This document shows, one piece after another, positions 1-19,477 of a DNA stretch of 20,000 nucleotides. The stretch is taken from assembly GCA_008632985.1 (NCBI GenBank), contig QPGO01000244.1, forward strand, positions 77,701 through 97,700, in the 5' to 3' direction. Source of the DNA: Psammoneis japonica. Its lineage: Eukaryota. Below the pieces are notes generated by a model that searched no databases, was not told the origin of the DNA, and worked only from the letters and a program-made list of their open reading frames with translations. Both the position numbers and the translations under genes were made by a program. How positions within the stretch are numbered: the stretch's first letter is position 1; every line of letters starts with the position of its first letter.

Positions 1-2322
1 TTGGATTCACACATTGAGGTGTTTTCTAAATGCTGCAGAGCATGTTGATTGTGATTTTTAGATTGATTCAATGTTGCATTCACACATTGATGCGCTTGAT
101 TCACTGTGAGATAAATCTTTCTTCGCTGTTGTTAAATCGCAGCAATGCACGTGAATATGAAATTGACACGCAGCTGGGTCCAAAGCCCAGTTCTGTGTTT
201 GCGTGCAACCGTGGCGACCGGAAGTCGGGGTGGTGCATTGTCAACTTCTTAAATTGTGGGTGTCAGTCAATTCGGGGATCACCATGGCTCAGGTCAAAAG
301 TGTCATGGGCCCTAAAAAGTTTCTCCTGACCAAAAGCAGTTGAGCAGCATCGTCGTCCATGCATCTGCCGTGTCACAGCTTGAGCCTTGCTTCGATGACA
401 ACGTTGTGTCCAATGAACTGACAACATTGACGCAATGATGTGAGAAAAGTCGATGAACTGTCCACGCAACGATTCCTAAATGCCCTGAGTTGAGCAAAAA
501 TTTTTTCATGTTTTTTTTTAAGTCATGATCTGTCAATGGGAGTTGGCATCGAGGGCACATCAGGGTGCCCAGTTCATGCAAATTTCCAAGTTGAAGTCGC
601 TGAATGTCCTGAGTTGAGCAAAAAAATTTTCATGTTTTTTTGGAAGTCGTGATTTGTCAATGGGAGTTGGCATCGAGGGCATGTCTGCATGTGCCCAGTT
701 CACGCAAATTTGCAAGTTGAAGAAACCCCCCAGTCAAGTTCCAAGTCCAATGATGCCACTGGCAGCGCCTCAGAAGCTCCCAAGAAAGGCAACATCACCA
801 GGCTGAGCAATGCCCAGAGCATGATGACACCTCGGCTGTCAAGAGATCAACCACCAGATCCCCACCACCCGAGCGATCACGCCACATTGGCCTCTGAGAA
901 AAAAACAACATGAAAACAACTTGTGGGCCAAGAGTGCTGCACCCAAGCTCTCAAATGAAAGCAGTGCCCTGTCCACCGCCGTTGCCACCTTCGGCGCAAG
1001 GCCAAAAGAAAAAAAGATGAAAAGGCTGTGTGGAAAAGAAGAGCCAGAGACATGGGGTGCAAAAAGTTGAGCCCTGCTGTCGGACCACCTCATCATCTCG
1101 GATGCCCGCCTCCACCCCCCACCCTTGCTTGCACCCCAGACAGATGCGAAGCTTGCCCTCAGGGAAATCAATGATGTGAAAGCAGCCCACAATGGAAAAG
1201 GAGCTCACTCAGCATGTGCGCATCGAAGTCAGTCCATCGCAGCTGCTCATGTCAAGCAGGCACATTTGCAAGTTGAGCGACAGACATGGCATCAATGAAA
1301 GAAAGTTCCTCCACAGGTTTCATTGCAACAACAACGCGGTTGCCAGGTGCCCCCACAATCGCCGCCAAGCTCCGATCTGCAGGAGCTGCAAGCACACACT
1401 TTTGCAGACCAAGCTCGCAAACAACACGCTGCCGCGGCACAAAAGCAGTGGCCTCAAAGAAGTGGCGCTGCATGTGTGTGCTTGTCTCTGGGCTTTTGGG
1501 GCGGCCCTTCCTGGTTCCTGTTTTTTTCTTTCATGTCGGCACTTCCCCCTGAACAAGCCAAGAAGACAACAATGGTGGAGCAGCGCAACAACTGTCGGGC
1601 ATTTGTGCGGGGGCTGAGGGTCACCCAACAAAGAGATTCTTGGGTTTGATTTGGAGCTCCTCTTTCAGATGTTTTGCATCCCGAGTTGGAGCCCCTTGCC
1701 TGGGCCAGGGCTGGGGTTCGCAAGGCACTGTTGATGCGCTGCTGCTGTGCGCTTGATGCACAAGCTTTGTTTTTTGGCACTTGCACAGACTCTGTGACTC
1801 ATTGTCGATGAGTGCTGCTGACACACTGCCAAACAGAAGAGCGTTGGTGATCGAGTGTGGAGATGAGAACATTCGCCCCACAGCGGAAGGGCAGTTTTCA
1901 ATTTTTGCAGCTGCGCGAGTGTTTGGAGCGTCGCGGCAAAGGCGGCAATTTGTGGGTGTGTGCCAGATGATGCTGATCCCACTGGAGTTGGAACAGCAGA
2001 CTGTTGCGAGCAGCCACTTGACAAATGGAAAACACCGGGTGCAAGTGAGTGTCTGTGCAGGTGGCGGTGGTGATGCAAGGCACACCAGAGCTGTCTGCCA
2101 GAGCTGAGCTCATGCCACCAGCAGGGCACACGAGGCCACATGAGCAAATTCGCCGGGTGTTTCGGCAGGGTCAGCTGACAGCAGTCGTGTGTCATCTGCG
2201 TTGACAGTGACCGCAAATCAAGAATTTCTGCTCACAAGCTGCTCAAATCTTGCCTGATGTTCACAGCTGGCCCCAACCCTCTGACCCTGACCCAATGACC
2301 CATGCAAGACGCGTTCCAGGTC
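1..2322. other. TpA-depleted domain of decayed repeat/pseudogene sequence
   Basis: About 9 TA in 1-520 and none seen in 521-2322. ORFs in all frames are rich in Cys/His/Trp and almost lack Tyr. No recognisable intact protein. Confidence 0.8.
437..722 (+). repeat. Dispersed repeat family: 28-bp block (437-464) plus two tandem ~120-bp units (478-596, 602-722)
   Basis: The units share gagttgagcaaaaa...gtcaatgggagttggcatcgagggca...caagttgaag. The same block order recurs at 5327-5499. Confidence 0.85.
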
Positions 2323-4666: not shown

Positions 4667-5326
4667 CTGCGGCTCTGAGCAACAAATTTTTTTTGTGCGG
4701 TGACAGTGTGCTTTTTTCAAAACTTTGAAGATTAAAAAGTTCCTAATTCCAGTTTGATTTGGCACACCCGAACATTTTTTTCACAGACAAACACGCTCAC
4801 CGTTCTCGCGCGGAAACCGCTGTGGCGAGGTGCACGGACACTCTTTTTTTTCCAATTTATCGCCATAATAGCGCATCGCACAAACTCACTTATTGTTCGA
4901 CATGTTTTCCCCAATATGACTTTTTCGTGTAGAATTCACGATAAATTATCTTTGTATATAACTGAATACATTTTTGAACATGCCACGCCGGCAATCCCAA
5001 TTTTTCAGAACTTTCGAGCTCTCCTGAAAAACCGTGCCACGTGCCCGTCGTAGGGAATTTATCGATTTTTTAGGATGTCCCCACAACCTCTCATGTCCTC
5101 AATGACAATTCCAAGAATCCGAAGAATTCATCTGCACTGAACAACCCACACCCTTTCAAAATCCAAGGGACACACTTTCAAATTCAGACGGACAACCCGA
5201 CTGCCCGACTGCCCCACTGCCGGACCGACACGAAAAAGTCTGCAATCACCAACCACTGAGTGGTCAATGAAAGTCCCACCCAGGACTGGAACCCGTCGCA
5301 AGAAAAGTCGATGAGCTGTCTCCAAC

Positions 5327-5499
5327 GATGTGAGAAAAGTCGATGAACTGTCCAAGCAAGGACCCCAAATTTTTTTTTGCTTCAAATGCCAAATGTCCCA
5401 AGTTGAGCAAAATTTTTCCATGGGTTTTGTTGCAAGTCGTGGTTTGTCAATGGGATTTGGCATTGAGGGCATGTCTGCACGTTCGCGCAAACTTCCAAG
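5327..5499 (+). repeat. Third copy of the 437-722 repeat family (possible transposon subterminal sequence)
   Basis: gatgtgagaaaagtcgatgaactgtcca is identical to 437-464, and 5391-5499 aligns with 478-596 and 602-722. Confidence 0.8.
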
Positions 5500-5739
5500 G
5501 TGTCAGTCAACATTGCTGACCTCTGCATGTGTGCTCTTTTTTCCTCATGTGCAAACCTGTGTGAGCCAATTGCCAGAAAGAACAACACATCTTGGTGCAC
5601 CCAGCCCAAAGCCTGTCTCAAGCTGCACCTTGTTTTGTCTCTCAGCTCTTCATTGTCTGGGTGGATCTCTCACACGCGGCATCACCTTGTGCCAAATCTT
5701 TGACCTCGCTGGCTTCAGAGACCCTTGCACACACTGCCC

Positions 5740-6223
5740 CAGCTTGGCAATGGCATCCTGACATTCTGCCAGCTCGGCAATGGCATCTGGCAATCCGACA
5801 TGGTGTTCTCGAGAGTCCGAACATGGTCTGCCAGTTTGGCGATGGCATCCTGACATTCTGCCAGCTTGGCAATGGCATCCTGATGATCCAACATGGTGTT
5901 CTTGAGAGTCCAAACTTGGTCTGCCAGCTTGGCAATGGCACCCTGACAATCCGACACGGTGTTCTCAAGAGTCTGAAAGTGGTGTGCCAGCTCAGCAACA
6001 GCATCCTGATGTTCCACCAGCTCGGCAATGGCATCCTGACGTTCTGCCATGGTGTTCTTGAGAGTCTGAAAGCAGTTTGCTGGCTCAGCAATGGCATCCT
6101 GACATTCCACCAGCTTGGCAATGGCACCCTGACATTCTGCCATGGTGTTCTTGAGAGTTCAAATGTGGTTTGCCAGCTTGGCAATGGCATCCTGACATTT
6201 CACCAGCCCGGCAACAGCACCCT
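5740..6223 (-). repeat. Coding-type minisatellite of mixed 30-bp and 63-bp units; relic of a coiled-coil protein
   Basis: Units start at 5740, 5770, 5832, 5862, 5925, 5988, 6018, 6081, 6111, 6174 and 6204 with core cagcttggcaatggcatcctga. The minus strand reads (AExQDAIAEL / ADxVRTLENTM)n. One 1-bp deletion near 5788. Confidence 0.85.
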
Positions 6224-6654
6224 CAACAGTTTCGTTGGATTTCTTGAGTTCGCCAGTGGATGCCGCCAAGCAGCGCTGCCTCCTTTCCCTTGCACGCTGA
6301 TTTTCTGATGAATTGCAAGGGGAGTGCTGGTGTGCTTGATGATGCCAATGCGATGCCTGCTGCCACGTTGTTGCTTTCCCCAGTGAGCGAAAGGCAACAA
6401 CAACACACAGTCATCACAACGGCTGCAACGCGGTCAGTGGCAAGGTGGCGCTCATGCTCAAATCTTGCCTGGTGTTGTTTGTGGCCGGCCTGTGATTGTT
6501 CCAGTGGCTGAGCCTCCTCCATGTGGCACCGCAACAACCAAGCACTGCACACGACTGCTCAAGCATGACTGTGCAGCATGAGCCGTGTTTTCAGTCTGTC
6601 ATGGTTGCCTGTGTTGGCTTGCCTCCATCACATCACATGATGACAGCCGAGTGC

Positions 6655-7276
6655 TGCACGTCTTGTGCTCTCATTTTGTTGTTGCTGCCAGACCTGCATG
6701 CTGCTTGCAAGCAGCCATGGCTGCAAACAACAACAGTGGCTGCAGGATGCACAGGTGGAATGAAGGTGATGATGCCGGGGAACTTTTGGGCCATGTGCAC
6801 AACCCTCGCAGCCCTGACATGATGTTCGCTCATGGAAATTGTCTCGCCAGAACACGTGGACAGAGCCCAGAATCTGAGCGGAAACTGGAGGTTGGTGTGC
6901 ACCACCATGTTCCACAAACACTGCAAGAGCATTGTGAAGCCAATCTTCCAGGCCGCGCCTCCTCCTGTGCCCACCGCCCACCCTCCCTCCTCTTGCAAAC
7001 CCACCTCGCAACACCACTGGGGTCATCCTCCACCTGGGCATCACTGTCCTCAATGCTCAAGGTGGTCAAGTTGAGCAATGCCAGCATTTTGCTTCATCAG
7101 CTCCACACAGGTTCTGACCCTCTTTTGTTGTTTTCTCTTGGGCCCAGATTTGGCTGGCATTGTCACAGCCACAGCACAAGGCCAGGTGACAGCCAGCTGG
7201 CAGCATCCTCTGAGATTTTTTGTTGTGGGACAATGCACGTCTTGTGCTCTCATTTTGCCATTGCTTCCAGACCTGC
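6655..7276 (+). repeat. 43-bp direct repeat pair (6655-6697 and 7234-7276)
   Basis: tgcacgtcttgtgctctcattttg...ccagacctgc occurs twice with about 4 mismatches. Confidence 0.75.
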
Positions 7277-8067
7277 TGAGAAACGTGCCTGATGCTGCCA
7301 CCCTTTCTAAGAAATGCAATTTGGCTGCTGCAGCCCACTCAGTGAACAGACACATGTGTGCGCGGCTGGCTGTTTCAATGTTGGATGCCCTGCCACTGCT
7401 CCATGTTGAAGCACATTGCTGGACACTTCCATGGCAACAAGCACTGGGGCATCACCTGCAAGAAACCTGGCCAAGACAACCCCAAGTTGCCCGCCTTCCC
7501 CAAAATGATGATCCCTTCCAGCTTTGCCAGCTGTTTTGGTTGGGTTGGCCAGTCGTGTGTCGTCTGCATCAACCATGATGTAAAATCAAGAGTTCAGACC
7601 AAAGTTGTTGCAGTGGCCTTGAGTGTGTTGGAAAGCACCTCAGATTTCTTTGAGAAGCAAGCCAGTGCCAATGATGCTGACCACACCAAAGTCCAGAGAC
7701 TTGGTGCAGAGCCAAAGCAATCTGGTGCAGCATCACATTCTCCAGCTGCACCCGCATGGAGAGGTTCTGATCCACCAAAGCACACAAGGGACACACCATT
7801 GTTGCTGGAAGCATTGATGGATGGATTGCCCAGCCCAAGTCAGAGAAAATGGTGGCTTTTCCTCCTCCAAGCCAGAGTGAGAATGGACTCTCCCAAGAAT
7901 GGAAAGCCTGATCTGCCAAAGCATGCAAGGATCATGCCATTGAAACCATCACTGCATGGATCACTCAAGTTGGAGATCCTTCCAGCCAGAGTGAGCATGG
8001 GCTCTCTGGTCCTGATGATTCTGAGAATGGCAGTGGCAAGATGCCAGCCAAAGATCCGGGTCAGAAA

Positions 8068-8212
8068 CCCAAGGTGAATGTCCAATTTTCCAAGCGGTGT
8101 TTTTGCAGCAGTGTTGTCAAATGCATGATGAAGAACACAGAAACTGGATCACCCATGTTTGGCATTGAATGTGAAGATGGCAACACTGAAGACATCAATC
8201 AAGAGGAGTGTG
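8068..8212 (+). pseudogene. Relic of a Tudor-like domain
   Basis: KVNVQFSKRCFCSSVVKC...PMFGIECEDGNTEDINQEE resembles the G-x-V-x-x-Y...(Y/F)-x-I-x-YEDGDxED pattern once C->Y and N->D are restored. Recognised by eye only. Confidence 0.45.
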
Positions 8213-9554
8213 CATCTAAACACTCAACAAGGAGCTTCCTTCAAAAGCTCATTTCACTCAAAATGTCAACATCCACAACTTGCCATTGGCCACTGAAAAT
8301 GTTGCTGAGACACAAACCACAGATTCTGTGACTGGCAAACCACCCACAAAACAATTGGAAGAGCCACGCGGCAATGAGATCTTTTGACACTTCAGAAGCA
8401 GCTTCGCTGTCTGAATTCTAAAAAAACATCCAAATTCCAAACCCCTCCCCACTGATTTCATTCACATCCATTTGCCATGACATGGCTGGCCACACATGGC
8501 ACAAATTTTAAGTTCATCATCCCCATTTTCACTGGAACAAAGCGCACACTGCCAGCCTTGCCACTTGGGGCAATGTGCTGACAATGGGGCTCACCACAAG
8601 TGTCCTGCAGAGATCTTCCTTGAAGTCACGCTGGGGGTGAGCCTGGGGTGAGCAGTCATTGGCTCCCCTGGCTGCAGCAACTGCTGTGAGAGTCTCACAG
8701 CTCCAGCTGAATGTTGCAGCATGGGTGATGCTTGGGTGTGGTGAAGGGTTTGAAGAAATGGGCACCACTTCAGCAACAGAGACTGCACCTCCATCCACAT
8801 GCAATTGAGGTGTCTCACTTTATGGCATGACATCTCAATGGCACTTTCACCAACTTTCACCCATTTTCCCATTTCTTGCTTTGTTCTTCTTGGTGACAAT
8901 TTTGCAATGCACACGCTGTTTTCTTCAAAGTCAGCACACGTTCAAGCTGAGATTGCAAATTTCACATTCAACACACACAACACCCAGTTGCCATTTCGGA
9001 AACTCTGGATCAACAGGAATGTTGCTGTTGTTTGGCAATGGCTCTGACAGCACACCAAACATCACATGCTTTGTAATGGGTTTGCATTGTTGCCACCCAG
9101 CAGTGCAGGATGCTTGGCTTCAGCACTGTGTCACACTCACAGTGGCTGTCTCAATCTGGCCTGTGCTTCTGAGAGGCAAGAAGAAAAGCAAAATGAGTGA
9201 GTGAGCAAGATTTCACTCTTTGGATGTGACCACAAACAATGCCAGAAGGTTGGACAGATGATGGGCAAACAAGAGCACCAAGTCAGCCTGAGTGAGAAGG
9301 CCCCATTTGTGGTCACCAGAGAGGATCTTCTTGCAGACCTCGCTGTTGTTTTTTGGCACTTGAAAGTTGGGCACTCTGTGGCCTGCAATGACGGGCACTC
9401 AAGAGATGCCCACAGCTCTGCAAAATGGAAGCACAGCAATGGAGGCAGAGCTCAGAGAAATGTGCAGGTCAGCCATGTGAAGTTGCCAACATGCAGACAC
9501 ACATGGGACCCTTTTCCTTTGCCCTTTGAACCAGGAGCTGCTTTTCAGTGCCTT

Positions 9555-10690
9555 TCACACATCACTTGGGTGAGAGTCAGAAAGAGCTGCCAGGTTCTGC
9601 AGCTTCTTGGACACCCAGATGATGGGACATCTGACATGACAAATGACATGTCCGATGCATGGCTTGATGGACGTTGGGTCCTGCCTGTCTTCAGCACAGA
9701 AGAGTCCCACAAAATCAGCACCAACACAGCTGTCCAGATGACGGTCAGTGGTGGGTGCAAGGATGAGCCCCTTGTTGGTGGCACCCTTCAAGTGACAAAG
9801 AGTGTGTTTGATGGCAACAGTGTGCAAGGCTTTGGGAGCACAGGAGAACTGCACAATTTGATGGACAGTGGACAGGCAGTGTTTGGGTGGCTGTCAGATG
9901 CTGGGTGCATCAGCGTGCCGACCACGGGGCAACAGTTGCAGGGTTCATCCAATGGCAGGCCTTCAGCAAAGTTGCCACCAACAGGTGTGGGAAGTGCAGG
10001 AGCAGGAGCTCCATTGCAGTTTTCCACATCTTGGTGGCACGCAGAACTTTCTCAGTTGGGCCAGGCCAGGTCAAGAAGGAAGAGCCAGCCACTCTTGAGC
10101 TTCTGGATCTTGATGCCCAAAAAGTCACCAACTTTGTGCCTTCACCACACAGGTCAAAGACATGGCATTGCTCGCCATCAGAGATGCCCAATTTGGCAAT
10201 GTGTCTCTGTTTGCTTCAAGTTCTTGAGCAGGTGCACCGGCAAACACGGCATCATCAACGTGCACCACACATGGCACACCCTTCTTTTGAAATGAAGACA
10301 AGAGTCAACAGCAGACTGGGACCAATCTCTTTCGAGTGATCCATCATGCAGCTTTCCACAGAAACACTTGGGAGGCTGATCATGAAGGCCACACAGGCCT
10401 TTCAACAGTTTCAGCACCAAATCGGCGACCGATCTTCTTGGCTGAGAACCCTTGGAAAGCTCCACACAGACTTTGTCCTTGGTGTCAGCTTGGTGCTGGG
10501 GATGCAACCATTTGCACAGATGACACAAAAGGAGGGGGGTGCCTCTCTCGAGGTTGTGCAACGCAGTGCAGAGGGTGACAACCGCACAGCAGGGGACAAT
10601 GAGACATGCCAAAAATGCAAATTGTGAGATGCTCTCTCACTTGTGCAAGAGTGACAATTTCGACCAACGGTCGCCAACGTCACTCCGACC
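9555..10690 (-). mobile_element. Degenerate Ty1/copia LTR-retrotransposon pol fragment (RT plus N-terminal RNase H), CoDi-like
   Basis: Motifs occur in copia order across frameshifts: LKLLKGLCGL (=LxKSLYGL), QSAVDSCLH, VHVDD at 10251-10265 (=YVDD), NCCPVVGTLMHPASDSHPNTAC (=YRSVVGMLMYLAxNSRPDIAY), KHTLCHLKG (=KRIxRYLKG), CVGADFVGL (=YVDADFAGL), GHVI..CPIIWVSK.LQ..AALS. No LTRs found. Confidence 0.9.
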
Positions 10691-10849
10691 ACTGTGCTGT
10701 TGCCGCAAGACTCGACGGACGTTTTTGCGGAAGCAAATCTGTCGTGACAACATGTCGATGACCCAAGGAGTCCACCGCCATCCGTGAACCAGCAGACTGG
10801 TGACTAGTGGCAGCTTGGCTCTTGTGGCTTGGGGCCGGCGCCGGCATCT

Positions 10850-10884
10850 CTCTACTCTCTGCTGCTCAGTGGTAGAGAGTAGAG
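10850..10884. repeat. Inverted repeat (hairpin) at the edge of the TA-depleted domain
   Basis: ctctactctct-gctgct-c-agtggt-agagagtagag has 11-bp perfect arms, extending to 17 bp if three TG are read as TA. Confidence 0.7.
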
Positions 10885-11480
10885 GTAGGCTAAATGATGC
10901 AGTGCGGGGTTGCGGGGGCTCCTCAGTTTATTTTGCTTGGAGCACATGGGTTATGAGCTCCTACCACTAAACGTATGTGCCACGTGCCACATGTAGGATG
11001 TACTGTAGGACGACGTACGTACCATGTACTGCAGTTCTACATACAGCACTCAACTGCGTAAAACTGGGCCCCCGCTTATTTTCAATTTGTCGGGGGGATG
11101 CGCGGAAACATAAGCAGGGTTATATCGAAAAATTCTCCCCCCCTGCTGTATCGTCAAGCCTAGGGCCCTACCGGTAGAGAGCACCGAGACGACAAAACAA
11201 GATGTGAATCCATGAACGTCGTTCATTTGTCAATCACAAACATTTATCTTGTAGCCGTACCAAAATGGCGTGATTCTTCACGCATGGACCCCCGTCTCAT
11301 GGTGTTGTTGCGAATGAAAGGTAAAACGTTCTCGTATTCAACGTAGAATTCTACTGTAGTCGGAAGGCGCTCCCTAACCGACGTGCAAGCTAGAGTTGTC
11401 ATTTGTGTCAAATGTTGATTTTAGCTCTTTTAAAAATCATTATAGCCAATGTTTTCAAAAATGGCACGTGCATCTTATTC

Positions 11481-16153: not shown

Positions 16154-16944
16154 GATATAGAAGTTGCGTTGGTTAGCGGCGCCTTTAGCCTTTGCTAGTT
16201 AGTATAAAAATGGGTCGAGTGTGGTGTAGTGTGGTGTTTGCGGTTGTGTGGCTTTTGAGCTTGGCGGTGAAATGCAAGAAGGGTGAAGCGGTCAAAACTT
16301 GAAAAGATTTGACTGAATTCGTTTTTCGCTTTTCTATTTTTTGGAGTCGTTTCCAGCCATATCTGTTGAAAATTACCGAAAATTCCAAAACATGTCACTG
16401 CACGAGTGTTTTCTTCGCCCTTTCGCTCAGAAGCAAGTCGAAAATAAGAAAATACTTTCGATTTAGTCACGCGTTTCTGGCGCATAAAAGCACTGCGGCT
16501 CAGCCCGATGTCGGAGGTCGGCGGTCGCTCTTGTTTGTTGCATCGTTGCTGTTGTTGATCTTCGTCGTCGAAACGGGCCCTCAGAGACAGGATGGGTGGA
16601 GGCATCCAGGCTTGGCCTCTGCGCAGAGCAATGGCGCAATTCCTGCACATCTTTGTCCGTTTCAAGGGTTTCAAAAGGCAAGACGGCGGAGGCCACACAC
16701 ACTTTTCGTTGTTGGGTGCACGTCCAGTCTACATCCATGGGTCATTCGACAGTGATGCGGTTGACCAAATTGTGTGTTGCGCAGAACGACAAAAGAGCAT
16801 GGGAAGGGGTTCCAGCTTGTTGAAATGGTTTTAGTGGCTCTCCACGCTTTGTGAAAAAGGTCTCATCCAGTTCAGTGGCGTGCTTTGCTCTCTGCTGCGG
16901 TGCACTTTTTTTCGCAAAGTGCCGTCTCCATCGCGACAAATAAT

Positions 16945-17290
16945 GTAGCTCGCTCTACTAGTAGGCTCGGCTACTCTAGAGAGCTAGAGTGGCTATGGCT
17001 CTACAGCAGCTACTCTAGAGTCTACCGTTGGCTACCGTAGCTGCTTAGAGAGCTGGCCACAAGAGCTGGCTCTGCTCTAGAGCCAAGCCACTGGAGCTAG
17101 CTCTGCTCTAGAGCTAAGCTGCTAGAGCCAGCTCTGCTCTGGAGCTAAGCTGCTAGAGCTGGCTCTGCTCTAGAGCTAAGCCACTAGAGCTAGCTCTACT
17201 CTCTAGCTAGAGAGCACCGGTAGAGTAGAGCATAGCTACTCTCTCTAGAGCTGAGAGTTAGAGAGAGGGCCCTAAGCTAGCTAGCTCGAG
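16945..17290. repeat. CTAG/AGAG-rich low-complexity tract containing a 31-bp tandem array (17062-17202, 4.5 units)
   Basis: Units at 17062, 17093, 17124, 17155 and 17186. Inferred consensus agagctagctctactctagagctaagctact, with internal palindromes agagctagctct and ctctagag. Confidence 0.9.
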
Positions 17291-17593
17291 GGCAAGCTCA
17301 ATAAAGCACAGATCATCATTCAAGATAAGTTTTTGTGTTGGCCTCGTACAAAGTTTACGTAGAGCAACGTCTCATGCAGTTCTCGTAGCGCTCCCATACA
17401 GTTTTACGTCGAGCCGTTATTTTTGAAAAAACAAAAAAGCTTCCGTTGCTCCAGGAGAGATCAACACAAATGGCTCCACACACAAAATCTTCATTCACAA
17501 CGTTGTCAACAGCAACGGGCAACATCTCAGAGCAACACACTGTTGGACAACAAACCCTTTCGCATCGTAACAATCGCTAGGCGCCAAAAGACG

Positions 17594-19477
17594 ATGGCAT
17601 CGGGAGGAACGCATCGCAAAGCGCGAAAAGCGGGTGGAGTGAACGTTGAGGCGGTACATCCTTTCGAACCGAAGCCGTCCAATCCTTCGTCTCTCCCAAG
17701 GAAAATGATGTCTTGTGTGGAAGAGGCGTGCATGCCAGCCAGCATGGCGGCAATGTCTACATTTGGCAGCTGGTGAAGCAACGACAAGAGGAATACACAT
17801 TGCACGCACCCAAAGCTCGCAAACAAGAGATTTCTCGTGAAATCGTACAGCAGATACACAGTCTCTCTCCTCCAGGAAGATTCATGAGAAAGAATGAGAG
17901 GCTAAATGTTTGGATGGAGGTGTCTGACGAGGAGGCGCGAAAGAAAGTCAGTCAATGCCTTCGTGAGAAGAAAGGGAGCGAGCCGCCCAATTTTTCGTAT
18001 CTCCCAAGGAAGAATGATGTCTTGAGTGGAAGAGGCTCGGGTCCCAACCAGCATGACGGCAATGTCTACCTTCGGCAGCTGGTGAAGCAGCGACAAGAGG
18101 AATACACATTCCACGCATCCAAAGCCCGCAAACAAGAGATTTCTCGTGAAATCGTACAGCAGATACACAGTCTCTCTCCTCCAGGAAGATTCATGAGAAA
18201 GAATGAGAGGCTGAATCTTTGGATGGAGGTGTCTCATGAGGAGGCGCGAAAGAAAGTCAGTCAATGCCTTCGTGAGAAGAAAGAGGGCAAAAGCAAATGT
18301 TCGCAGGATCTTTCTTTTAACGACTCGGCAGAATTACTCCAGTTTCAACCGAGCACACAAGCTGTTCGCTCGCTCATTGACCATCGTCCGTCGCAATCGC
18401 CCCTATGCTGGAGCTACAACGCAAGCTCGACCATCTCTTCGGCAAGAGAACCGACGCAGCAAGAAACACGCACAAGCTGAAGAGGTACCGACCCTGGCAA
18501 ATGAAGTAGAAGACCGTAAAACTCTTCCTGTCAAGAAAAGGAGGCCTACGCTACAAATGCCGGAAAATTGTGACATTATTGATGTTGACGCTGAGCCGGA
18601 AGCACCATGGCACGCTCACCTTTCACAATACCCTTGGTTGACAAAAACTGGCTCAGTCAATACCAACTAGAAGATGATAAAGAGGTTGGCGCCGACGAAC
18701 CGCATGCGCCATGGGACGCTCACCTTTCACAATACCCCATGGTTGACAAATATCGGGTTAGTCAATACCAATTAGGTGATGAAGAGGTTGACGCCGAGGA
18801 GCCGAAAGCACCATGGGACGCTCACCTTTCACAATACCCCATGGTTGACGAGAATTGGATCAGTAGATACAAACTGGGTGACAAAGAGGAGCTTGGTGCC
18901 AGGGAATGCTCCCGGTAAGTGCATCAATCATCCTTTGAATTTCAGCACATGTGGTTTTTCTTATTCGCTCATCATCCGCCCTCCTGGTGCAACGGTGAAC
19001 AGAACGATACTCGAAGAAGTCGAGCCCTTCATACCACGCCCGGAGTCTACCGCGTCAAAAACCCCGACCAGCATACTGAAACACTCGAGTAAACCTTGCC
19101 GTGAAGGCTTTAGCAAGACCGCTCCTAGCTCCTTCGAAAGCTTTGCATCTTCTGCAATGAATACTCCACCTAAATCCTTAGAGGAAGATCATCACGTAGG
19201 TCAGATCAAGACTGCGCCTTGGTCCGCCGAATCGTCGGTGCCCGATTCATCAGAAGATGCTACTCTAGCTGTAATGAGGAACACGAAGCACGATCGCGGT
19301 GAGAATCAGCTCAAGCCTGCTCCAAAACCTTTGGAAAGATTAGCATCTGATACATCATATACTTCGCTCGTCGTACTGACACACTCCAAGCAAGATCGTG
19401 CTGCTAATGAACGCAAGCTCGCTCCTAGTCCATTGGAAAGGTTGGCGTCCATTGCATCAATTACTCACGAGCCGTAG
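17594..19477 (+). CDS. Protein with two tandem DUF6824-type domains, three ~35-aa repeats and an S/P-rich tail; frameshifted in this sequence
   Basis: NDVL(C/S)GRG...HxGN...LV...Y...KQEISREIVQQI...PPGRF...W.EV..EEARKKVSQCLRE occurs twice. Frame breaks at about 17703, 18465 and 18633. Frame-restoring GT-AG intron at 18915-18992. The true 3' end may extend to ~19700 through another frameshift. Confidence 0.75.
17693..18281 (+). repeat. Intragenic near-identical tandem duplication, period ~309 bp
   Basis: 17693-17972 and 18001-18281 align with long identical stretches, each encoding one DUF6824-type domain. Confidence 0.92.
18583..18890 (+). repeat. Three ~102-105-bp coding repeats (EPxAPWDAHLSQYPMVDxxxxSQYQLGD)
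   Basis: ccatgg(g/c)acgctcacctttcacaataccc occurs three times (~18605, 18709, 18811). Confidence 0.9.

Follow-up and report, generated by a model that had tools for sequence, protein, structure and literature searches.

To our knowledge, a preprint of 2026 was the first account of a cellular process by which A:T pairs in chosen regions of a genome mutate to G:C specifically at TpA. According to the available text of that preprint (Mettrop et al., bioRxiv 10.64898/2026.01.13.699255), in mutation-accumulation lines of Bigelowiella natans two integrated viral regions mutated at ~6e-7 per site per generation, with TpA changing to TpG or CpA at about 1000-fold the normal rate; 230 of the 231 mutations there were A to G or T to C, all of those on TpA, and the activity was limited to some lines. 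The genome of this alga also holds 124 clusters of windows that are poor in TpA and rich in CpA and TpG, reverse transcriptase and DDE domains are over-represented among its TpA-poor coding sequences, and the mechanism proposed is deamination of adenine by an ADAT2-like enzyme (Mettrop et al.). The preprint text, in the part available, makes no mention of diatoms, stramenopiles or tandem repeats. Our literature search for TpA hypermutation in diatoms found no report, returning only papers on fungal RIP and the Bigelowiella preprint. What is new here is the diatom host, together with retrotransposon and repeat targets, for a signature described only in that preprint.

Several other systems share some of these features. 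RIP in Neurospora and other fungi is dinucleotide-specific, acts on both strands, wrecks repeated or mobile DNA, can leak into flanks and affects single alleles, but it converts C to T at CpA and makes TpA, whereas the DNA described below loses TpA and gains G:C pairs. TG and CA also accumulate when methylated transposons lose their CpG by decay. ADAR or APOBEC editing of retroelements gives deaminase-driven clustered transitions on repeats or foreign nucleic acid, and ADAR prefers a 5' U; however, the substrate there is RNA or single-stranded cDNA and one strand is marked, in contrast to the present locus, where both strands are hit within a few bases. Dinoflagellates, another SAR lineage, carry 5-hydroxymethyluracil at TA and TC in repeat elements (PMC11572971). 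This TpA-preferring modification that marks repeats offers a possible chemical route, but it is an epigenetic mark for which the available part of the source reports no link to T-to-C mutation, and no such modification has been shown in diatoms. For diatoms themselves, the parts of the sources available describe a general bias from GC to AT with TG as a mutable context in mutation-accumulation lines of P. tricornutum, and DNMT4 enzymes related to RID, of unknown function, in 31 of the 60 species surveyed.

The window analysed here, a stretch of 20,000 nucleotides from the diatom (stramenopile) Psammoneis japonica, encodes a cyclin, a prefoldin subunit, an acetyl-CoA synthetase and a DUF6824 protein of the host. 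For the synthetase, every named best match comes from a diatom (Grammatophora at 70%, then Cylindrotheca, Nitzschia and others) and the named matches of the cyclin are diatom-specific cyclins, so that no closely related diatom seems to have been sequenced. These host genes contain 4–16 tyrosine codons and 14–39 TA dinucleotides each, while the frames within the blocks described next contain no tyrosine at all. Dinucleotide odds calculated per 500 bp, together with a listing of TA positions across the window, revealed contiguous kilobase blocks at 520–2322 and 5072–10804 in which loss of TpA is coupled to gain of CpA and TpG (Table 1). In the assembled sequence the 7,536 bp of blocks 1 and 2 together contain 7 TA, whereas 11,129 bp of ordinary DNA contain 471. 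The loss is restricted to TpA: TA odds in the two large blocks are 0.02 against 0.62 in ordinary DNA, while AA is not depleted (1.20 against 1.13), AT stands at 0.87 against 0.96 in the remainder, and CA/TG is raised to 1.76 from 1.18. All 16 N-TA-N contexts are depleted across the window outside the TA-rich island, and the edges of the blocks are sharp, with TA reappearing abruptly at 2323, 5071 and 10805. Polymerase-eta-type errors from WA to WG were ruled out as a source, AA being undepleted in the blocks.

Table 1. Position of the array, the island, the blocks and the associated elements in the window
Feature	Position	Strand	Description
TA-free block 1	520..2322	.	0 TA in 1,804 bp; right edge sharp
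124-bp repeat units	433..722	+	Left edge of block 1; second occurrence at 5323-5479, within block 2
TA-free block 2	5072..10804	.	7 TA in 5.7 kb; both edges sharp
Ty1/Copia retrotransposon remnant (RT end and RNase H region)	9483..10636	-	Frameshifted, without a Tyr codon
Short hairpin motif, arms CTCTACTCT and AGAGTAGAG	10849..10888		Opposite-strand copy at ~17190-17230 in the island; alignment-based
TA-poor block adjoining the island	16485..16940	.	2 TA (16730, 16832) in 456 bp; CpG retained
TA-rich low-complexity island	16941..17295	.	355 bp; CTAG/AGCT-rich; contains the array
31-bp tandem array	17049..17209	.	Tandem Repeats Finder: 5.2 copies, period 31, 83% matches, no indels
Diverged partial array unit	starts 17050		With a 1-base shift
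Full array units (n=4)	starts 17081, 17112, 17143, 17174 (span 17081-17204)		Register begun at 17081

A second, ordinary process is separate from the TpA loss. CpG is also low in the two large blocks (odds 0.34 against 1.00 in ordinary DNA) and varies along block 2 from 0.07 to 0.80 per 500 bp; CpG decay as in methylated transposons is visible there. This decay coincides with the two large blocks and not with the block at 16485–16940, where the stretch 16520–16939 has kept 25 CG while losing its TA, and the TpA process is therefore not CpG decay. The seven TA that remain in block 2 all lie within 7308–9074, and the bins containing that segment (7001–10000) have the lowest CpG odds in the window (0.07–0.20); TA may have begun to re-arise here, the segment then being a nested element of greater age. 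On the left side of block 1 TA thins over ~500 bp (27, 59, 112, 133, 156, 250, 313, 477 and 519), so that positions 1–519 form a second fringe-like gradient.

The blocks also hold repeats. The 124-bp repeat contains a three-state site: TA just beyond the edge of block 1, TG within that block, and CA in the copy that lies in block 2. The units of a 93-bp repeat (5739–6223, block 2) differ mostly by whole-dinucleotide swaps between CA and TG and contain sites with the three states CG, TG and CA; on the minus strand this repeat reads as a coiled-coil-like repeat with weak, sub-threshold Pfam matches. A Pfam scan of 24 frames inside the blocks found no family, giving coiled-coil noise at 5715–6158 on the minus strand and two weak chance matches. 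Over 5128–10803 both strands carry long, overlapping open frames in large number, since DNA free of TA has neither TAA nor TAG, and gene-calling programs will probably report these frames as proteins. A foreign origin could be recognised for one fragment of block 2, the Copia RT/RNase H remnant, while block 1, 16485–16940 and the array have no annotation.

The Copia remnant allowed us to read the direction of change. Its frame at 9555–9893 on the minus strand has 922 matches in the protein library, the long ones carrying RVT_2 and gag_pre-integrs domains, and tblastn placed the end of the reverse transcriptase and the RNase H region at 10432–9483; for the RNase H frame, close relatives of similar length were not found. 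In alignments of 150 homologues for RNase H and 42 for reverse transcriptase, none of the seven conserved tyrosine columns is kept in the remnant, whereas 59 of the 95 remaining conserved columns are (Fisher p 0.0017). Five of the seven lost tyrosines are now CAC, CAT or TGT, that is His or Cys, one step from TA to CA or TG (in the RNase H frame, His stands at columns 34 and 82, Cys at column 56), and the other two are TGG and GGC. Conserved arginine columns of the remnant have changed to Cys, His or Gln, which is CpG decay, a separate ordinary process.

Among the 150 library homologues five are nearly free of tyrosine, and the longest of these, P0156, is an uninterrupted Copia polyprotein of 2,061 residues from a public metagenome assembly. 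It contains one tyrosine in total, its His and Cys are raised, and it keeps none of 13 conserved tyrosine columns (replaced by C in six, H in four, F in two and W in one), while other conserved columns are kept at 13/13 for W, 29/31 for D and 19/28 for R. TA loss in this protein is therefore complete while the rest, CpG-bearing Arg codons included, is largely intact. In contrast to CpG decay, the stretch 16520–16939 has lost TA and kept CG, and P0156 has lost Tyr and kept Arg. P0156 shows that TA-erased retrotransposons exist in other public assemblies as well.

The array itself lies in the island, between the prefoldin side and the DUF6824 gene, where TA odds rise to 2.0 against 0.62 in ordinary window DNA. 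It is a minisatellite, with head-to-tail copies of one unit. Nine positions differ among the four full units (register from 17081). Eight of the nine lie inside the six Y-R steps of the unit, which cover 12 positions, and all eight are transitions; the ninth difference, AG to CT at positions 30–31 of the last unit, is the end of the array, and the 19 non-Y-R positions are invariant across the four full units. The probability that eight variable positions all fall within 12 of 31 is 6.3e-5 when the kinship of the units is ignored. Over the 24 site-by-unit cells the states are TA in 11, TG in 8, CA in 4 and TC in one (at the array's end), with CG in none; since the units have a common ancestry, these counts do not equal independent events. 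Transitions compatible with A to G or T to C are found alike in the array (8/8, between TA, TG and CA), in the Tyr columns (5/7 to His or Cys) and between contigs (12 changes at TA, below).

An earlier note on this DNA had described the variable sites of the array as restricted to TA, TG and CA with CG absent, which agrees with our count (8/8 transitions in Y-R steps, 0/24 CG), and its lists of states for sites 6–7, 12–13, 17–18, 23–24 and 28–29 match our list of Y-R steps. Its first junction state, given as CA, is actually AA at 17061–62, a T-to-A transversion, and its statement that no other position differs is right for the four full units and wrong for the partial unit at 17050 with its 1-base shift. 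The note also took TA as the ancestor by parsimony. Here site 28–29 in its register has CA and TG only and no TA, so that a CG ancestor fits equally well, and in general a CG ancestor, or a CA/TG ancestor with C-to-T change, would need about as many steps. The direction has to be read elsewhere in the window, and TA as the ancestral state is supported outside the array by the Copia tyrosine columns, the three-state site and the 12:0 difference between contigs described below. The direction from TA to TG or CA is accordingly a result for the Copia remnant and the block edges, and not for the array's own sites.

Searching metagenomes with the 31-bp unit pattern (N at six sites) gave 46 single matches and no array among them; 43 of the 46 lie in G+C-rich loci (0.54–0.78) and three carry one identical match, and all look like chance matches. 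Rfam returned mir-3170 alone, with E 0.44 and 20.7 bits, which we treat as chance, as it is far under the gathering score of 98. Left of the island, the open frame at 16195–16698 has no family match and looks like low-complexity noise. To the right, a 309-bp tandem duplication (92% identical, 17673–18283) doubles the DUF6824 domain of the neighbouring gene and is followed by a 102-bp repeat in 2.9 copies (18593–18889); a restriction to TA, TG and CA was not seen among the differences of these two repeats, which lie outside the blocks.

The hairpin motif at 10849–10888 and its copy in the island align locally with a score of 38, against a null maximum of 24, and each copy lies directly to the right of a TA-free or TA-poor block. 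Read depth peaks at ~354 over 17196–17226, where several contigs stop with similar TAG-rich sequence, which suggests that copies of the motif are scattered through the genome, where it may act as a boundary element or mark the end of a transposon.

Comparison with other contigs and reads of one sample, over the span 16700–17600, gave an independent view of the flank. Among the sequencing runs one sample contains the stretch; X2 (share 0.10) and X3 (0.00) contribute nothing at the locus, their thinly covered bins do not count as evidence, and no RNA run with the stretch was listed. Two contigs both start at 16912, one at a depth of 34 (record 4) and the other at 29.5 (record 5). Between record 4 and the window there are 16 differences, confined to 16942–17038, with no substitution across the array itself. 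In 16912–17039, 12 of the 15 TA sites of the window read TG or CA on record 4, while none of its ten TG or CA sites reads TA there and none of the eight CG sites carries a transition. The remaining four differences comprise two transversions and one double change from TG to CA. The polymorphism that the earlier note had proposed to look for is thus present between contigs of a single sample, and its separation of the process from CpG deamination holds (0/8 flank CG sites with a transition, 25 CG kept in 16520–16939). So one-sided a result, 12:0 (binomial 4.9e-4), is incompatible with a steady clock running equally in the two lineages. TG and CA outcomes lie 2–5 bases apart on record 4 (16942/16946 and 16957/16959). 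Record 5 differs from the window at 10 places, and since the depth of 63.5 is the sum of 34 and 29.5, we infer that it agrees with the window at the 16 places where record 4 differs; the window sequence looks like a mosaic of the two forms.

With the substitutions of record 4 applied, the share of TA among TA, TG and CA per 60 bp from 16880 runs 0, 0, 0.29, 0.36, 0.42, 0.75 and 0.62. The claim that conversion fades rightwards away from the TA-poor block therefore best describes the record 4 version, which rises smoothly from 0 to 0.75 and 0.62; in the window's own version the left flank is still TA-rich (0.75, 0.54). The sample also contains a second copy of the stretch 16701–16876. A more distant copy, ~85% identical (record 1), still carries TA at 16743, 16766, 16774 and 16782, four places at which CA or TG stands in the window; no site shows the opposite. 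A contig of 3,420 nt from the same sample, at a depth of 55, matches with ~85% identity on both sides and has 445 other letters in place of 357 (16877–17233), and so represents a paralogous locus with its own, unalignable island.

Taking these data together, we consider it likely that a region-targeted hypermutation of DNA has been converting TpA to TpG or CpA here, and that the array lies in its fringe, where conversion is partial. An A:T to G:C transition would occur on either strand of the self-complementary TA, and CG never appears because a site once hit is no longer TA and hence is immune. The process would be complete in blocks of mobile or repeated origin, and would reach with falling probability ~250–300 bp into the TA-rich island that holds the array, conversion being further advanced on one haplotype than on the other. 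Its target would be silenced mobile or repeated DNA, with the array in a spill-over zone; it may be tied to a silenced or foreign-DNA state, CpG decay coinciding with the two large blocks though not with the third. As TG and CA are interleaved within a few bases, the substrate is probably double-stranded DNA, attacked on either strand, and not an RNA intermediate. By analogy the chemistry may be adenine deamination at TpA by an ADAT2/TadA-like deaminase, with enzymatic oxidation of thymine at TpA as a conceivable alternative. Three related candidates were set aside. RNA A-to-I hyper-editing carried through reverse transcription should mark one strand, and here A>G and T>C alternate within 2–5 bases; an ADAR-like preference for a 3' G is not seen at the 12 changed sites, where the 3' neighbour is C in six and G in four; and decay of methylated CpG at the array is contradicted by CG states in 0/24 cells and CG transitions at 0/8 flank sites.

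The same patterns could in principle be read in the opposite direction, as a RIP-like process converting C to T at CpA, mostly within CAG, in repeats, with TG and CA ancestral and the TA-rich island as its product. There is something to be said for this: the non-TA form is CAG or CTG at 10 of the 12 changed sites (counted on record 4), fungal RIP hits CpA in bursts and on single alleles, which would suit the 12:0 asymmetry, RID-related DNMT4 enzymes are recorded in those 31 of 60 diatom species in the available survey data, and P. tricornutum, as far as its source shows, has the GC-to-AT bias and the mutability at TG. However, wherever the direction can be read it is the opposite one, from Tyr to His or Cys in the Copia remnant and in P0156 and also at the three-state site. 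RIP would turn CpA into TpA and enrich its targets in TpA, while the repeated and mobile blocks here are poorer in TpA, not richer, and their Tyr codons have become His or Cys. The gradient, moreover, goes from the TA-free block into the island, and an additional CG ancestor would have to be assumed for sites that show CA as well as TG. We therefore regard a RIP-like origin as very improbable.

The mutation that we propose would be mimicked by an error of sequencing or assembly, if silenced DNA carried a base modification at TpA that is called as G or C. Modified bases do give systematic miscalls on some platforms, and the block sequences come from the assembly, the read comparison covering 16700–17600. 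A modification of suitable preference exists in the dinoflagellate 5hmU, which, according to the part of the source available, takes the place of T with a preference for TA and TC and is a mark of repeats (PMC11572971). Yet the alternative states sit on two contigs with depths of 34 and 29.5, alternation of TG and CA 2–5 bases apart is not producible by strand-of-origin misreading within 31-letter words, and mixed consensus calls would be expected to yield CG, which is absent. Tyr-free Copia proteins also occur in unrelated public assemblies, and the Bigelowiella preprint, in its available text, confirmed the mutations as heritable in Illumina-sequenced lines (Mettrop et al.). Such an error is in our opinion very improbable as the cause.

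We find it just as hard to credit selection in place of mutation, whether the elements avoid TA (for example because of a TA- or UpA-directed nuclease) or the array is a bound or folded motif in which the Y-R steps are free to vary. Avoidance of TA and UpA is common in genomes, the 19 non-Y-R positions of the unit do not vary in the four units, and the island folds as a single strand far above shuffled sequences (z -3.9 and -2.6). When the TA/TG/CA states were permuted, however, the fold was not significantly weakened (RNA plus strand z -1.3, 32/400; RNA minus strand +0.7; DNA +0.7 and +0.2), so that hairpin compensation at the variable sites is also unsupported. In the remnant, moreover, conserved tyrosines of reverse transcriptase and RNase H are replaced and the frame is shifted, so that its product cannot be under selection. 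TA loss also spans non-coding repeats and ends at sharp edges, and selection leaves the 12 one-directional contig differences unexplained.

Ordinary transition-biased divergence of the repeat, with the restriction to TA, TG and CA arising by chance, might be entertained for four non-independent units with eight variable positions, but is extremely improbable given the placement probability above, a probability of 0.039 for eight transitions out of eight at a 2:1 bias, the recurrence of the restriction in the flank (12 of 16 contig differences) and in kilobase blocks, and its absence from the 309-bp and 102-bp repeats outside the blocks.

With hypermutation at TpA as the preferred reading, the locus can be set beside B. 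natans. As far as the preprint text is available, the two share A to G and T to C changes at TpA only, giving TpG or CpA by strand, as well as confinement to regions, unevenness between lineages, a TpA-poor trace rich in CpA and TpG, and association with reverse transcriptase. They differ in several respects. B. natans is a chlorarachniophyte and the present host a diatom, and the targets described there are insertions of giant viruses and virophages, in contrast to a Copia remnant, repeats and, at the fringe, a tandem array. TA loss is near complete in the blocks of the window (odds 0.02) and partial in the NCLDV region of B. natans (Rho 0.45). The rate was measured directly in B. natans, whereas the signature in the window is known from sequence alone. 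Finally, the gradient at the fringe and the difference between haplotypes are seen in the window and absent from the available text of Mettrop et al. On the strength of this analogy, our data suggest that the TA-targeted process of B. natans may also act on mobile DNA in diatoms.

This would put the process in a second, ecologically dominant SAR lineage and extend its targets to retrotransposons. It would also provide a comparative handle on the enzyme, which should be sought among genes common to both hosts and absent from algae without TA-free blocks. For annotators of diatom genomes, runs without TA and Tyr codons would serve as a marker of silenced foreign DNA, and the long open frames within TA-free runs would be recognised as by-products of lost TAA and TAG stops, not genes; a filter for Tyr-free RVT_2 proteins could map TA erasure across databases. 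It is possible, and we put this forward tentatively, that TpA-directed DNA editing is a widespread genome defence of SAR lineages, diatoms and chlorarachniophytes among them, which tracks a domain of silenced chromatin and not sequence identity, erases the TAs of that domain and creeps into neighbouring DNA, with a boundary that differs between haplotypes here. If so, TA density would record the past boundary of the domain and this locus would be a live front, and since every Tyr codon disappears along with TAA and TAG, two of the three stops, the long open frames that the process leaves would be raw material for new genes.
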